NCBI GenBank assembly: GCA_017406985.1
Contig: JAFQXL010000004.1
Span: forward strand, 59,708-123,707
DNA: 64,000 nucleotides
Direction: 5' to 3'
Source: Candidatus Saccharimonadota bacterium
GTDB lineage: Bacteria > Patescibacteriota > Saccharimonadia > Saccharimonadales > Saccharimonadaceae
The notes under the pieces are model-generated. The model saw nothing but the letters and a program-made list of their open reading frames with translations, was not told the origin of the DNA and made no database searches. The first letter of the stretch is position 1, and every line of letters starts with the position of its first letter. Positions 889-8,910 of the stretch are shown here, piece after piece. The position numbers and the translations under genes are program-made.

Positions 889-917
889 ATTATAGCACAA
901 ACGGAATAAAAAATCAA
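889..917 (-). promoter_or_regulatory. sigma70 promoter for cpsC-cpsD
   Basis: TTGATT-17 nt-TATAAT with extended TG on the minus strand. Confidence 0.6.
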
Positions 918-941
918 GAGTTAGAACATAAAAGTCTAGGG

Positions 942-970
942 TTGATAAAAAAAGTGTGATTTGATATAAT
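942..970 (+). promoter_or_regulatory. sigma70 promoter of the tRNA-Tyr/Thr pair
   Basis: TTGATA(942-947)-17 nt-TATAAT(965-970). Confidence 0.65.
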
Positions 971-1014
971 TATGAAATCAGAGTGTGGTTGGCGCGAGCC
1001 AAGCTCTCTGATAC

Positions 1015-1099
1015 GCTGGAATCGTCTAGTGGCAATGACAAGAGACTGTAAATCTCTCGCCTTCGGGCTTCGTAGGTTCGAGTCCTACTTCCAGCACCA
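1015..1099 (+). tRNA. tRNA-Tyr(GUA)
   Basis: Cloverleaf: GCTGGAA/TTCCAGC acceptor, AGAGA-CTGTAAA-TCTCT anticodon arm, long variable arm, TTCGAGT T-loop, encoded CCA. Confidence 0.95.
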
Positions 1100-1100
1100 T

Positions 1101-1177
1101 GCCATCTTAGCTCAGTTGGCTAGAGCAGCCGCCTTGTAAGCGGCAGGTCGTCGGTTCAAATCCGACAGATGGCTCCA
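1101..1177 (+). tRNA. tRNA-Thr(UGU)
   Basis: Cloverleaf: GCCGC-CTTGTAA-GCGGC anticodon arm, TTCAAAT T-loop, encoded CCA. Confidence 0.95.
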
Positions 1178-1286
1178 TTTTTTATTTTGCGTTTTTAAGA
1201 AGAAAAGGCGTCTATCCGAACGCGGAAAAACATCGCGAAATCCAGAAGCTCTCGGAAGCAAAATTCGAAATATGAATCTTAAAGAG

Positions 1287-1314
1287 AAAAGACCGCGAAA
1301 AAGCGGTCTTTTTT
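1287..1314 (+). terminator. Intrinsic terminator after the tRNA pair
   Basis: aaaagaccgc-gaaaaa-gcggtctttt hairpin plus T-run. Confidence 0.7.
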
Positions 1315-1324
1315 AAAAAAGCTC

Positions 1325-1353
1325 TTTACAACAAAAGAATTTATGCTTATAAT
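1325..1353 (+). promoter_or_regulatory. sigma70 promoter upstream of the DGR target leader
   Basis: TTTACA(1325-1330)-17 nt-TATAAT(1348-1353). Confidence 0.6.
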
Positions 1354-1358
1354 GGAAT

Positions 1359-1609
1359 TGCAACAACATTTACATAAACGACGTGTTTATTTGATACCTT
1401 GTTTTAGGTATCAGGCAATACGACAGGTTAACGAATATTGCGCAGACATCGGCGTCACGAGAACCCGATAAAGTTCAATATTCGTTAACACGTCTATTGT
1501 TATGTAGATACGGTTGTTGCACTCGTGACGCCGTATTTGTTTACGGGGGATGTTCGTGGAAAGGCTTTCTCCTCTAAACAAACAACACTCATCTAAGGCG
1601 ACGTCACGA
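1359..1609 (+). ncRNA. Candidate structured 5' leader with pseudoknot (unknown family)
   Basis: Nested stems 1359-1387/1487-1521, 1392-1399/1406-1413 and 1427-1440/1476-1489 (perfect 14 bp); loop 1451-1461 is the exact complement of 1522-1532. Confidence 0.55.
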
Positions 1610-1639
1610 CCAAACATAAAATAAGGAGGTAAACTTAAA

Positions 1640-3343
1640 ATGGGTCGGGTGACTACAAAAACTAAACGGAGCGTGGATATTCTGACGATAGTCGGTGTCT
1701 TCTCCGGATTTTTATTATTAACATTATTAGCTGTGTATCTACACTCGCCGGTAATAAAAACCAGCGCGACAGACGAGGCTTCGAGCGCTTCGGTCTATGT
1801 CGAGCCGGTGGCGAGTATCTCGGTTGATCCAACGGTAAGTCTAGACATTACGCCGTCCGGAACGGGCGGAGTTGCCGATTCGGAACAACTCGACGTTAAA
1901 GTTATGACAAACGCGGAAGTCGGCTATGTTCTAAAGATGGCGGCGGAAGGAAGCTCGGCGGAAATGACCAGTCGAACTTCGAGCGATACAATTACTTCGG
2001 CCTTTACAGGCGGACTAACGCTCGAGAATATGTCGCCGAATACTTGGGGGTATTCGACTGATAACTCGACGTTCTATAAAGTTCCAGTAACTGGTAGCGA
2101 AGTTACGCTTGCTTCTCCAAGTAGCTCGACCGCGGAAGCATGGGAAACAACAACGATTTATTTCGGCGCGAAAGTCGACTCTTCGACCGAAGCCGGTTCT
2201 TATTCGAAGAACGTTGTCTTTACCGCAGTCGCGAACCAAAGACCACGAACTTTCTATGATATTACTTATATGCATGAGATGTCCTCGGCTATTTGTTCGA
2301 ACACCCCGACCGCTTCGAGCTATAGCGTAACTGCGACAACTCCAAACAATACCCTCGCAGAAGCGAAGACCGGAAACTATATCGCCCAGACGACTTTAAT
2401 CGACTATCGCGATATGAAGAGTTACCTTGTTCGTAAATATGCCAACGGCGAATGTTGGATGGCGCAGAACCTCGAGCATGATTTCTATTCGGCGGGAGAC
2501 TCTGTTGCGGACGGTTCTAGTAACACTGGAACTTATGCGACGACTTCAACCGGAATTAATACCTCCGCTAAGACAAACGCTGCTTCGACGCTCGGTTCGA
2601 ACAACTTTAGCAAATGGGTAAGTTATTCCGATATTAATAACGAAACCGCCTTTACGGCTTCTACGAACGCTTATGGCGCGGGTAAGTTTTACGCAACTCA
2701 GAACTTCTCTGGAAGCTCATATGGTTGGGCAGATAACGGAACCGACGGCGCGAGAAGCTATTCGACGAACGCGGCGGGCGCGGCGAACTATATTACAAAG
2801 ACTGGCTCGACGGCAGGTGACGGTTATTATACCTTCCAAGAATCGACAACTGGACAACCATATCAGAGAGTTGGTAACTATTATAACTTCGCAGCGGCGA
2901 AAGCCGGTTATCTCGGAACCGCAACTGGCGGTGATGACTCAAGCTCGACTTCGAGCACAACTGAAGTTCCTGATAACTCGATTTGTCCTCGTCACTGGAC
3001 TCTTCCGAAGAGCGGAACACACCTCGCTGGAACCGCTAAGTCCTTTGATAACCTAATTCGTCTTTACTATGGCGCAGACTGGACTAACGGCGCAAATAAT
3101 ACTACACTTTATAACTTCTTAAATGGAGCGCCGCTCGATTTCTGGCGTGCCGGCTTCTACTATCGTAGTTACGGTACGGTCGTCGATCGTACTACCAATG
3201 GCGGCTGGTGGTCTCGTAATGCCTCTTCTACCGCGGGTGCTAACGCCTTGGGTACCCGCATCAATAGTAATACGGGCTACGTCAATGCGCAGTATAGCTA
3301 CTACCGAGGCTACGGCTTGCCTATCCGTTGCGTAGTCCGCTAG
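1640..3343 (+). CDS. DGR target protein: membrane-anchored surface protein with Ig-like stalk and C-terminal Fib_succ_major/CLec-type domain
   Basis: N-terminal hydrophobic segment; 'CWMAQNL', 'GNYYNFAAA', 'ICPRHWTLP' and terminal 'PIRCV' motifs; C-terminus encoded by the VR; SD aaggagg. Confidence 0.85.
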   Translation: MGRVTTKTKRSVDILTIVGVFSGFLLLTLLAVYLHSPVIKTSATDEASSASVYVEPVASISVDPTVSLDITPSGTGGVADSEQLDVKVMTNAEVGYVLKMAAEGSSAEMTSRTSSDTITSAFTGGLTLENMSPNTWGYSTDNSTFYKVPVTGSEVTLASPSSSTAEAWETTTIYFGAKVDSSTEAGSYSKNVVFTAVANQRPRTFYDITYMHEMSSAICSNTPTASSYSVTATTPNNTLAEAKTGNYIAQTTLIDYRDMKSYLVRKYANGECWMAQNLEHDFYSAGDSVADGSSNTGTYATTSTGINTSAKTNAASTLGSNNFSKWVSYSDINNETAFTASTNAYGAGKFYATQNFSGSSYGWADNGTDGARSYSTNAAGAANYITKTGSTAGDGYYTFQESTTGQPYQRVGNYYNFAAAKAGYLGTATGGDDSSSTSSTTEVPDNSICPRHWTLPKSGTHLAGTAKSFDNLIRLYYGADWTNGANNTTLYNFLNGAPLDFWRAGFYYRSYGTVVDRTTNGGWWSRNASSTAGANALGTRINSNTGYVNAQYSYYRGYGLPIRCVVR

Positions 3344-3383
3344 GTCGTCTCCATCGTAGTTTTCCGCTACCAGCAGCTCGCGT
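3139..3383 (+). repeat. DGR variable repeat (VR), including 40 nt past the stop codon
   Basis: 245-bp ungapped match to the reverse complement of 5451-5695; 24 mismatches, 22 at TR adenines. Confidence 0.95.
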
Positions 3384-3432
3384 GAAAACGGAAAAAGGGC
3401 CGAAAAAAGTGGATTAAAACAGAGGAGATAAA

Positions 3433-4269
3433 ATGACGCTAGTCAACGAAAAGAAACCGGATAAGCTCGGAGCGAAACAAATGGTTCGCTCCGAGCGCGA
3501 GCGCTATCGGAAAATTAAAGCTACGATCTATGAAAAAGAACTGACGAACGATCAGCACGTATATGTTTATCGTTCGTCGAAAGAATGGTGGAAAGTCGGG
3601 GGAAACTCGGCGCTCTACTATAAATATATCCTCGGCCCGAGGCTGAAGGTTGCGATAAACCTGAAGCGGGACGAGGATCATTATTCTACCTTCAACTTTG
3701 GGGTTGTCTCGATTCGGGACATAAAAAGTTTCAAAGAGAGAATGAAGAAAGCGGGGATGGTTCCCGGGCCGGAAAACGATAACGCGATAAAGTTTTCGTT
3801 CAAGGAAAAAATTAGCCTCTCGACAATCGACGCAATCAAAGAAGATGTCGAGTTCCAGCACGAGCGGATAAACCGGCTGGTCGAGACGAGGAAGATTGCG
3901 CCGGACATGTTCGTCCTGATTCGCCAGTTCATGAGCGAATTTTGGCACTATTCAAAAAGATATAATAAATATGAAGCGCGGAAAACAATCACGAGCGAAG
4001 TTGTCGTCGAGATGATGAAAATGAAGCGGGCTTACGCCCACATGGCGAACGGAGATGTCGAAATTTTGGACGGGATGCTTGAGATAAAAAGTTGCGCCGA
4101 TTCCCTAATGTCGGATATTTCGTTTCTCGAAGAAGTAAAAGAAATGGGGTTCGACAAGGCGATGAAACTCAGTATGCACCTCGGAGATATAAAGCGAATT
4201 GTTAACCGCGAACTAAAAAAGGTGGTAAAAGAAAATGAGCGGATTAATTCTGACGGAAGATCGGAGTAG
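3433..4269 (+). CDS. DGR accessory protein: putative MutS-domain-I-like N-terminus fused to an Avd-like four-helix bundle
   Basis: Sits between VR and RT and overlaps the RT start by 35 nt; N-terminal pattern resembles MutS domain I; C-terminal ~115 aa helical and Avd-like (judged by eye). Confidence 0.65.
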   Translation: MTLVNEKKPDKLGAKQMVRSERERYRKIKATIYEKELTNDQHVYVYRSSKEWWKVGGNSALYYKYILGPRLKVAINLKRDEDHYSTFNFGVVSIRDIKSFKERMKKAGMVPGPENDNAIKFSFKEKISLSTIDAIKEDVEFQHERINRLVETRKIAPDMFVLIRQFMSEFWHYSKRYNKYEARKTITSEVVVEMMKMKRAYAHMANGDVEILDGMLEIKSCADSLMSDISFLEEVKEMGFDKAMKLSMHLGDIKRIVNRELKKVVKENERINSDGRSE

Positions 4270-5368
4270 GTTTTTTGACTATCTCGAACAGATGCTCTGG
4301 AGGGCGTATTATTGCGCGAGAAAGGGTAAGCGGACGACCGAAGACGAACATAAGTTCGAGATAAACGCGGCGGAGAATATACACCAGCTCGCAATCGACA
4401 TCATGACGCGAAACTATCGCCCGACGGTCGGGATTGCGTTTATAACGAAAGAGCCGGTAATCCGAGAGATTTTCGCGGCGCCGTTTCGAGACCGCGTCGT
4501 TCACCACGTTTTATTTAACGCCTGTAGCGGATGGTGGGACAGGCGACTTATCTATGATTCTTATTCTTGTCGCGTCAATAAGGGGACGCATTTCGGGATT
4601 AGGCGATTACACCACCACATGCAGGCTTGTTCGGAAAACTTTACTGTTCCCTGTACGATTGTTAAATTAGATATACAGGGATTTTTTATGAGCCTAGATA
4701 GAGAGAAGCTACTTAAACGGATTCTCTGGGGGCTAGACCAGCAGTTTAAAGGAAATTATAACGAGCTTTACCACGTTTTAAAGTTTCTTTGGACTTCGGT
4801 CATTATGGACGACCCGGTTCAAGGAGTTCGGCTCCGCGGAAAGCGGTCAGATTGGGACCAGTTACCGACAAATAAGAGCCTGTTTAATCAGCCGGAGGGC
4901 GTCGGAATCGTGATCGGGAACTTAACTTCTCAGCTCGCTTCGAATATTTTTCTCGACCCGCTCGATAGATATGTTATTTCGGATTTAGGGCTTAAACATT
5001 ATGGGCGATATGTCGACGATTTTTATTTTATCGTTCCGGATTCGGAGAAAGAATATGCGCTCGCTTGTATCGATACGATTTCGGAGTTTCTGTCGAAGCT
5101 CGGACTAACTCTACATCCGAAGAAACATTATATCCAGCCGATTTCACACGGCGTGCCGTTTCTCGGGGCGGTCGTTTATCCGCATTGTACCGTCCCTGGG
5201 AAGAGGATAAAGAAAGAGTTTATTCGGGCGGCTTATGAGTTTGCGTCGGGGTATGAGAGTATTGAGTCTTTGATTTCTTATATGGGAATGTTGTCGAATT
5301 TCCAGAGTGCGAAGTTCGAGAAAGAAGTGTTCGAGAGTTTAGGGTGGGATTATTATAGTAAGTTGTAG
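4235..5368 (+). CDS. DGR reverse transcriptase
   Basis: Motifs 'FRDRVVHH', 'KLDIQGFF', 'GIVIGNLTSQLASNIFL' and catalytic 'YGRYVDDF'; 377 aa with no maturase or endonuclease domain. Confidence 0.95.
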   Translation: MSGLILTEDRSRFFDYLEQMLWRAYYCARKGKRTTEDEHKFEINAAENIHQLAIDIMTRNYRPTVGIAFITKEPVIREIFAAPFRDRVVHHVLFNACSGWWDRRLIYDSYSCRVNKGTHFGIRRLHHHMQACSENFTVPCTIVKLDIQGFFMSLDREKLLKRILWGLDQQFKGNYNELYHVLKFLWTSVIMDDPVQGVRLRGKRSDWDQLPTNKSLFNQPEGVGIVIGNLTSQLASNIFLDPLDRYVISDLGLKHYGRYVDDFYFIVPDSEKEYALACIDTISEFLSKLGLTLHPKKHYIQPISHGVPFLGAVVYPHCTVPGKRIKKEFIRAAYEFASGYESIESLISYMGMLSNFQSAKFEKEVFESLGWDYYSKL

Positions 5369-5394
5369 GGGGCGTTTTTTATGCGCTTTTAGAA

Positions 5395-5440
5395 AAAACG
5401 TAGTGCTTAAGTTTCTTGCGATTCTTAAACACTACGTTTT
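5395..5440. terminator. Bidirectional hairpin between the RT 3' end and the TR 3' end
   Basis: aaaacgtagtg-c-ttaag (5395-5411) pairs with cttaa-a-cactacgtttt (5424-5440); A/T runs on both sides. Confidence 0.65.
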
Positions 5441-5450
5441 ATTTTGTTTA

Positions 5451-5695
5451 ACGCGAGCTGCTGGTAGCGGAAAACTACGATGGAGACGACCTAGCGGACT
5501 ACGCAACGGATAGAAAAGCCGTTGCCTCGGTTGTTGCTATTCTGCGCATTGACGTTGCCCGTATTACTATTGATGTTGGTATTCAAGTTGTTAGCATTCG
5601 TGGTAGAAGAGGCATTACGAGACCACCAGTTGCCATTGGTAGTACGATTGATGACCGTACCGTTACTACGATTGTAGTTGCCGGCACGCCAGAAA
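5451..5695 (-). repeat. DGR template repeat (TR), inverted relative to VR and RT
   Basis: Minus-strand copy carries 20 in-frame AAY codons where VR has substituted codons. Confidence 0.95.
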
Positions 5696-6109
5696 AATCC
5701 ACCGCCAAAGAACCGGTTAGTGCAAATGGCTCGAGCCTTATTCTAACGAGCCAAAACTCAGAAGAACAAGAGACCAAAGAGCTGCTTCTTCCCCGGACAC
5801 CCCGTAAAGCGTCCGGGTTCCGACCGGTTCGACTTTTACGTCGTTATCTGCGACTTTTTGAGTCGCTTTTGCGTCGGCTAGACTTCGCGAAAATGAAGTG
5901 AGCTCTCCAGCTCGCGTGGGGACAGCGTAGATTTCAAGTGGATAAGATACGATATTCCCGTAAGGTCCCTTGCACTTTTAAACGCTACGGATATTCCAGC
6001 TTATCATTTAACTTTCCACCTAGCTTCACATCCCCTAGTTATATTATAATGCTTATGGTTTTTTTGTGAGGTTTTGTGTAATATAGGATATTATGTTATA
6101 ATAATTCTA

Positions 6110-8910
<2,801 letters not shown>

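Follow-up and report, generated by a model that had tools for sequence, protein, structure and literature searches.

A 64,000-nucleotide stretch of the genome of a Candidatus Saccharimonadota bacterium (GenBank assembly GCA_017406985.1, contig JAFQXL010000004.1, positions 59,708 to 123,707; hereafter the window, to whose first letter the coordinates refer unless a contig or locus is named) carries a complete diversity-generating retroelement (DGR) whose template repeat (TR) lies downstream of the reverse transcriptase (RT) gene and on the opposite strand. The element is active: across samples its variable repeat (VR) is hypervariable and its TR is invariant. The reversed orientation of the TR is also found at the great majority of related loci, where it appears to be the ancestral arrangement. 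We therefore regard the element, with high confidence, as an active, chromosomally resident DGR of host-associated Saccharibacteria. The cassette consists of three genes on the plus strand and a TR on the minus strand, as follows.

1640..3343, plus strand: DGR target gene, an intact open reading frame (ORF) of 567 residues with the VR at its 3' end
3139..3387, plus strand: VR, with a mutagenised span at 3155-3311; it covers residues 501-567 of the 567-residue target ORF
3433..4269, plus strand: accessory gene, 278 residues, overlapping the start of the RT by 35 nt
4235..5368, plus strand: DGR RT, 377 residues, recognised by Pfam RVT_1, its motifs and a PDB match
5447..5695, minus strand: TR, with the minus strand as its sense strand, 79 nt beyond the RT stop (5368)

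An adenine-biased repeat pair in opposite orientations

The first 9 kb of the window contain a single strong inverted repeat, with arms at 3139-3387 and 5447-5695 (249 nt, 90% complementary), which exceeds by 4 nt the 245 bp read in an initial annotation of the same DNA. When the VR on the plus strand is aligned without gaps to the reverse complement of the TR, 25 mismatches are found in 249 nt. Inside the 245 bp there are 24 of these, and 22 stand at TR adenines (11 A>G, 9 A>T and 2 A>C); the two that do not are adjacent (3319-3320, TT>GC), and the 25th mismatch sits at the edge of the repeat (3384). Given 66 adenines among the 249 TR bases, finding at least 22 of 24 mismatches at adenines has a binomial P = 3e-11. 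The bias is matched to the coding frame of the target (ORF 1640-3343), as all 22 adenine-site changes fall on codon positions 1 or 2. The same positions hold 53 of the 54 TR adenines within the mutagenised span, and the TR carries 20 in-frame AAY codons (10 AAC and 10 AAT).

The 3' part of the VR (3312-3383, 72 nt) is common to the TR and holds the target stop codon (3341-3343) together with 40 nt beyond it. The TR adenines facing this segment never vary, no variable adenine being found past 3311 in five alleles, and the TR/VR homology ends at 3383-3384. The segment appears to be like the initiation of mutagenic homing (IMH) element of known DGRs.

The RT reads YVDD at the YxDD catalytic motif and GIVIGNLTSQ at motif 4 (IGNLTSQ, for [I/L/V]GxxxSQ), and its sole match among PDB sequences is the Bordetella phage DGR RT (bRT; 8ub7_A, E = 3e-26). 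Judged by its sequence, it belongs to the DGR RTs. The initial annotation had reported the inverted VR/TR pair with its 24 mismatches, 22 at TR adenines, and its 20 AAY codons, the order target, accessory and RT on the plus strand followed by an inverted TR downstream of the RT, and an RT ORF (4235-5368) with YVDD and GxxIGNLTSQ motifs; our alignment and recounts return every one of these.

The orientation of the pair also fixes the strand of the template. DGR RTs misincorporate opposite adenines of the template RNA, as is established for the phage element BPP-1. It is only on the minus strand that the variable sites read as adenines, so that the template RNA has to be minus-sense and cannot derive from the accessory-RT transcript.

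Variation of the VR between strains

Activity was judged between assemblies and samples, not within samples, by means of the target protein cluster, exact-protein look-ups and the DNA behind them. The 90% cluster of the target holds five full-length variants that are ~99-100% identical over residues 1-505, with their differences scattered over residues 506-560. At the DNA level the five VR alleles have 33 variable columns, 30 of which stand opposite TR adenines. The TR, by comparison, is 100% identical in five assemblies of the species, represented by the window and the contigs L082, L083, L084 and L078, the flanks of which differ by up to ~3%. The clearest single comparison is that with L082, which comes from a different ENA sample: 22 of 6,843 aligned bases differ from the window, all within 3155-3320. 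The initial annotation had held that an invariant VR would indicate an inactive relic; the VR alleles vary at TR adenines, and it is the TR that is invariant.

Orientation of the template in related loci

To place the layout among its relatives, up to ±8 kb of sequence was surveyed around 40 further RT loci, in addition to the window, a second DGR in the same genome and the loci L001 and L002. TR/VR pairs were called by their adenine bias with the RT strands made explicit, giving 28 pairs, with loci from ~30 species. The TR lies opposite to the RT strand in 25 of the 28. The layout of the window, in which target, accessory and RT are followed by a reversed TR, is found at 18 loci, the second DGR of the genome included, and six loci have accessory and RT followed by a reversed TR and a reversed target. 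At two others (L041, G030:C9, and L068, G015:C11) the reversed TR stands upstream of the RT, ahead of the accessory-RT pair. Only three pairs have a TR co-oriented with the RT, one of them with an unrelated RT (28% identity) and two nested inside the clade. This distribution, with 25 of 28 reversed and the co-oriented exceptions either unrelated or nested in the clade, points to the reversed TR as the ancestral state of this DGR clade. Whether the inverted layout is conserved in related genomes had been raised by the initial annotation, and these counts, with the exact layout at 18 loci, answer that it is.

The position of the template is somewhat more variable than its strand. At L040 (G014:C9) a co-oriented TR lies downstream of the RT, and the TR unit seems, from such arrangements, to move as a module. 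At another locus of the clade (L052, G001:C6) a perfect 82-nt direct repeat (7361-7442 and 7906-7987, zero mismatches) lies just 3' of the RT; either a duplication or a VR newly overwritten with the TR sequence may account for it.

Of 36 genomes sampled in the genus, 30 have related RTs, compared with only 2 of 24 other families of the order. Cassettes in the genus are often present in 2-4 copies per genome, with RTs that are ~45-56% identical. The second DGR of the genome under study (locus L076, contig C1:38966-40054, minus strand) has an RT 55% identical to that in the window, the layout target-accessory-RT-(TR), a 692-residue target and a TR/VR pair of 180 nt in which 21 of 21 mismatches stand at TR adenines. 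The two nearest matches in the genome collection are Saccharibacteria metagenome-assembled genomes from goat and roe-deer duodenum; at the closest of them, L001, the accessory and RT are present and no TR/VR pair was found within ±6 kb.

A proposed separate transcription unit for the template

With a minus-sense template, it is plausible that the TR is made as a separate convergent minus-strand transcript. The TR lies in an intergenic gap of 705 nt (5369-6073) that follows the RT and precedes queA and tgt, and three features of this gap would delimit such a unit.

6040..6070, minus strand: TR promoter-like site CTCACA-16-TATAAT, with its -10 box at 6043-6048 and 10/12 consensus matches, divergent from queA
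5696..6036, minus strand: predicted 5' leader of the TR RNA, ~340 nt, non-coding and structured
5394..5439, no strand assigned: bidirectional, intrinsic-terminator-like hairpin of 17-18 bp between the RT stop and the TR 3' end (5447), with T-runs on both strands

The -10 box is held within a 21-mer (6040-6060), AACCATAAGC[A/G]TTATAATATA, which, allowing at most one mismatch, occurs only twice in the 731 kb of the genome: at window positions 6040-6060 (minus strand) and at C1:38540-38560 (plus strand). Both copies are upstream of a TR and on the TR sense strand, at distances of ~345 and ~175 nt. Among the 18 same-layout loci, the nearest upstream ORF (at least 90 residues) is divergent from the TR and 220-600 nt away in 11. 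At the other end, the hairpin has a folding energy of -22.5 kcal/mol on the minus strand, where it is followed by UUUUUU, and of -20.4 kcal/mol on the plus strand, where it is followed by UUUUAUUUUGUUU; it could terminate both of the converging transcripts.

The RNA predicted from these boundaries (652 nt, 6036->5385) folds at -221.5 kcal/mol, with z = -9.6 relative to shuffles. A 10-mer of the leader, ACGCGAGCTG (~5908-5917, starting 222 nt upstream of the TR), is a perfect complement of the TR end (~5450-5459), and in the minimum free energy fold it forms a long-range helix with the last TR bases. Across relatives this complementarity between leader and TR end gives a perfect match at p<=0.05 in 7 of 24 loci, and the duplex energy is weak: in an RNAduplex test of the clamp against dinucleotide shuffles the mean z is -0.62, with one locus below -2. 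Separately, 44 bp of the leader (5822-5865), overlapping a small hairpin at 5850-5866, are absent in L078, L083 and L084.

Accessory and target proteins

The accessory gave no match in Pfam, NCBIfam or a PDB profile search, and Avd was recognised in it through structure comparison only. Its AlphaFold2 model, built with an alignment of 23 homologues, has a mean predicted local distance difference test (pLDDT) score of 91.8 and falls into two parts. Residues ~131-278 form a four-helix bundle with an isoelectric point (pI) of 6.4. Foldseek places these C-terminal helices on the Avd chains of 4dwl and 8ub7 (DGR ribonucleoprotein) with probability 1.00; the target-normalised template modelling (TM) score of the superpositions is 0.76-0.86 (0.81-0.86 bar one chain) at a root-mean-square deviation of ~2 Å. 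The same half also matches Avd's S23-family relatives 2gsc and 2rld, and the Pfam family bAvd matches one of the 23 homologues (E = 0.023). As modelled, the C-terminal half is an Avd-type four-helix bundle.

The residues up to ~130 are modelled as an alpha/beta domain, which is basic (pI 9.8) and reaches a pLDDT of 94.4 when modelled alone. No credible structural match to it was found in the PDB (best TM 0.46) or in BFVD (none). The model thus describes an Avd fused to a basic N-terminal domain without structural match, which we call a 'long Avd'. The initial annotation had taken the accessory as Avd-like; this holds for the C-terminal half, with its modelled Avd fold, and does not extend to the N-terminal half, which has no Avd likeness.

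The helix-strand order of the N-terminal domain and its motif WKMGGxSALxY recall MutS domain I (YRMGDFYELFY), and we considered this identity and rejected it. There is no MutS among the 50 best PDB matches of Foldseek, hhalign against residues 1-132 of E. coli MutS returns a probability of 0.7%, Pfam MutS_I is found in one of the 23 homologues (E = 0.041), and neither the PDB-sequence profile search nor BFVD lends support. As a separate observation on MutS itself, Pfam MutS_I is found in 0 of 41 genomes of the order (G000, G037-G076) versus 11 of 14 control genomes, and the lineage appears to be without MutS-type mismatch repair. A lack of such repair may matter for the survival of mutagenised complementary DNA (cDNA) heteroduplexes.

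Homologues of the accessory lie directly upstream of the RT at all related loci, with conservation of the family there in at least 23. A profile search with the N-terminal domain collected 484 clusters (50% identity) among 1.84 billion representatives; nearly all are proteins of 245-395 residues with the domain near the N-terminus, and this length leaves room for an Avd-sized C-terminal part. Two homologues (L015:2618-3724, minus strand, and L023:84-1103, plus strand) have an extra N-terminal HTH_3 domain (XRE-type, best E = 1.9e-8), a hint that the accessory family may bind DNA or be autoregulatory.

The target protein combines an N-terminal hydrophobic membrane anchor, a Ser/Thr-rich middle (30% S+T in residues 41-260, the segment sampled) and a C-terminal domain that carries the VR. 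It has no match at E<=0.01 in Pfam or NCBIfam. The target is probably surface-exposed, and may function in host attachment.

Proposed mechanism and competing explanations

Two sets of features upstream of the cassette complete the picture of the locus.

1325..1353, plus strand: promoter-like site TTTACA-17-TATAAT, with 11/12 consensus matches, 287 nt upstream of the target gene
1015-1096 and 1101-1174, plus strand: two tRNA genes, directly upstream of this promoter-like site

We propose that transcription of the plus strand covers target, accessory and RT, probably as one operon, the likely start of which is the site at 1325-1353. A leader of ~290 nt would then stand ahead of the target start codon. 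The TR would be a separate convergent RNA gene on the minus strand, its transcript running from the promoter ~345 nt upstream (-10 box at 6043-6048) through the structured leader and the 249-nt TR to the two-way hairpin (5394-5439), which would also end the RT operon. The RT and the 'long Avd' would copy the minus-sense TR RNA into cDNA, misincorporating opposite template adenines, and the cDNA would take the place of the VR in the 3' part of the target. As many as 20 AAY codons would be recoded in this way, at the tip of a membrane-anchored, probably surface-exposed protein. In this scheme the start and end of the TR RNA, the structure of the operon and the role of the N-terminal domain are what we infer from the DNA. 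Whether mutagenesis is switched independently of RT and Avd expression, as the initial annotation suggested, is speculative.

A more far-reaching joint reading can be put forward tentatively, as a possibility about which we have more doubt than conviction. The element would belong to a distinct DGR lineage of Saccharibacteria, of this genus and perhaps wider, with an autonomous template gene that is promoted and terminated separately and converges on the RT operon. The 5' leader would act as a priming scaffold or clamp by pairing with the TR 3' boundary, the basic N-terminal domain of the 'long Avd' would bind nucleic acid in place of the basic surface of the classical Avd, and transcription of the TR would provide on/off control. 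In BPP-1 a 3' spacer has the scaffold role, and the classical Avd has a basic surface.

Several results count against parts of the proposed mechanism. The -35 box of the TR promoter-like site is weak (CTCACA) and, in two related strains, falls on the far side of a rearrangement breakpoint (~6060), and a search of 24 related loci for a consistently placed sigma-70 promoter upstream of the TR gave matches that vary in strength and distance. The terminator hairpin was seen at some of the related loci and not at others. A GC-rich hairpin after the VR was sought by folding, with no stable hairpin or cruciform found (z = +1.06). For the target, a lectin-like fold is only hinted at, by a sub-threshold Pfam match, that of its C-terminal 317 residues to Fib_succ_major (19.8 bits versus a cut-off of 33.9).

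The first two of these points would fit a TR RNA made from another promoter, either at another site in the leader or at an antisense start in or beyond queA. In a variant of this explanation the leader is processed and the 21-mer is not a promoter, being for example a regulator-binding site. It would account for a -35 box that falls outside the conserved block in the rearranged strains, and for the second DGR, which has no good -35 box at the matching place; there, a palindrome (TTTGTGGCA-n-TGCCACAAA) lies just upstream of the 21-mer instead. Against it stands a 21-mer that contains a perfect TATAAT and occurs only upstream of two TRs, on the TR sense strand; moreover queA is divergent, so that no upstream gene reads through into the TR. 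We consider a different promoter unlikely, though it deserves to be taken seriously, and retain the site at 6040-6070 as the candidate start of the template gene.

The surroundings of the cassette bear on whether it is a resident cellular system or part of a prophage or other mobile element. The initial annotation had described a complete chromosomal DGR without phage or insertion sequence (IS) genes at its flanks, and both statements stand: all parts are present, on a 554-kb contig of a 731-kb genome in 4 contigs, and the neighbours are housekeeping genes, namely Wzz and capsule genes, the two tRNAs, queA, tgt, a Sua5/TsaC homologue and ftsK. Within ~5 kb either side of the cassette no genes of phages, integrases or IS elements were seen, and an Rfam search of 900-6200 returned the two tRNAs only, plus a spurious miRNA match on the terminator hairpin. 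A mobile origin could nevertheless be argued from the adjoining tRNA genes and from related strains in which the same cassette has different neighbours. In L083 and L084 (JGI 3300010998 and 3300011008), L085 and L086 the cassette is 96-97% identical, an inserted DegV gene separates the tRNAs from the target, and past ~6060 the sequence joins an inverted tsaC/Sua5 region, not queA; the neighbourhood has therefore been rearranged between strains. One RT from another family is also nested in the genus clade, which hints at transfer. Set against these are the lack of mobile-element genes on each side and the presence of related RTs in most genomes of the genus (30 of 36), often in 2-4 copies and ~45-56% identical, as expected of an old and diverse family and not of a recent spread. 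We give the mobile-element explanation little credence and continue to treat the cassette as chromosomally resident.

Even less weight attaches to the element being an inactive relic, that is, a decayed repeat pair beside an RT that is no longer homing. The two non-adenine mismatches at 3319-3320 and the missing hairpin after the VR are what such a relic might display. The non-adenine pair, however, is private to the window allele, the other four alleles having the TR sequence there, and all ORFs are intact. Strains that diverge by 2-3% in the flanks have the same TR, differences among the VRs are nearly confined to TR adenines, and a near-identical strain differs only within the VR. These observations are those of the active element described above.

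More improbable still is a TR segment that acts as a phase-variable switch, inverting at times into the orientation of the RT operon. This was weighed since inversion would give on/off control, and nothing was found in its favour: 5369-6073 is not bracketed by inverted repeats, a single orientation is seen in all assemblies of the species, and related loci are fixed in the opposite orientation to their RTs.

Finally, an origin of the backwards TR in faulty assembly, through a mis-joined inversion at the 249-bp inverted repeat, can practically be dismissed, as the initial annotation's concern over a misassembled inversion is met by the same TR orientation in independent assemblies from ENA, JGI and Logan, including single contigs that link RT, TR and queA (L078) or target, accessory, RT and TR (L082-L084), by the same layout in the second DGR of the genome and by an opposite-strand TR in 25 of 28 related loci, even though the repeats do interrupt short-read contigs of the same strain from other samples (L079 corresponds to 3354-5480, and L078 and L080 start at 3623). 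An inverted repeat of which one arm is hypervariable would be expected to break contigs inside or beside the VR and TR.

Discussion

The element shares its core with BPP-1, in which mtd, avd, TR and brt follow each other in this order, co-oriented, so that the TR RNA is part of the avd-RT transcript. The RT is of the same family, bRT being the only solved structure that matches it; the accessory has an Avd-type four-helix bundle; the flow of adenine-specific changes from TR to VR enters C-terminal AAY codons of a receptor-binding-type protein; and the 3' part of the repeats, at whose TR adenines no change is seen, appears IMH-like. Unlike BPP-1, the TR here is downstream of the RT on the opposite strand, hence outside the avd-RT transcript, and the accessory, of double the length, has an additional basic domain at its N-terminus and an Avd half that is not basic. 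The element is also chromosomal rather than borne by a phage, and has no GC-rich hairpin after the VR.

Wu et al. 2018 (PMC5758913) found a hairpin at this position after the VR in just 34% of DGRs. The contrast in layout with BPP-1, on which the initial annotation placed its emphasis, is overstated as a novelty, since RTs and TRs on different strands were published in 2012, 2018 and 2019. Schillinger et al. [quoted passage not shown] Wu et al. 2018 described DGRs with TR and RT on different strands and explicitly concluded that these are separate transcription units, and MyDGR (2019, PMC6602519) handles different-strand cases and calls them rare. The inference of a separate template transcript is sound, and is already in the literature.

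The present element agrees with Group 4 and with the cases of Wu et al. in that RT and TR do not share a strand, and separate transcription units are thereby implied. The six related loci with accessory and RT followed by reversed TR and target have the Group 4 arrangement as defined. The element in the window differs from it, as only its TR is reversed: the VR and target remain on the RT strand, and VR and TR are mutually inverted. A further difference lies in frequency, since Group 4 and different-strand DGRs are reported as rare and here the layout is the rule for the clade.

Two other published features invite comparison. The architecture B3, TR-(avd)-RT with a reversed avd, is usual in DGRs of the candidate phyla radiation (CPR) from groundwater (Wu et al. 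2018). It resembles the present element in its CPR/Patescibacteria host, in being cellular and not phage-borne, and in having one reversed component, so that more than one transcription unit is needed. It differs in which component this is, for here the accessory runs in the same direction as the RT, with which it overlaps, the TR is the reversed one and comes after the RT, and the accessory has an added N-terminal domain. The same study reported MutS-like (MSL) accessory proteins of 112-283 residues encoded beside DGR RTs. The 'long Avd' is likewise a small accessory beside a DGR RT, with an N-terminal domain whose order of elements and short motif recall MutS domain I, but its likeness to MutS has no statistical support, and the domain is fused to Avd instead of being a separate gene. 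For the layout as the norm of a Saccharibacteria clade, the TR-specific 21-mer and the 'long Avd' we found no description, the CPR survey of Paul et al. 2017 and the supplementary tables of Wu et al. 2018 aside, and these may be new.

To our knowledge, DGRs are the only known natural system of targeted protein hypermutation in prokaryotes, and nearly all that we know of their mechanism comes from one phage element, with its template within the avd-RT transcript. Tools for in vivo evolution are being developed from DGRs. A routine use, within one clade, of an antisense RNA gene of its own for the template would mean that supply of the template in trans is a stable natural solution, and for this clade there is also direct evidence that it is active in the wild. 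The clade offers a compact natural system in which to study how an RT and its template are matched without co-transcription, how mutagenesis is regulated and what the N-terminal domain of Avd does. The presence of at least one active DGR in a 0.73-Mb genome, with membrane-anchored targets, supports the view, already proposed for CPR bacteria generally, that fast variation of surface binders is central to epibiotic life.

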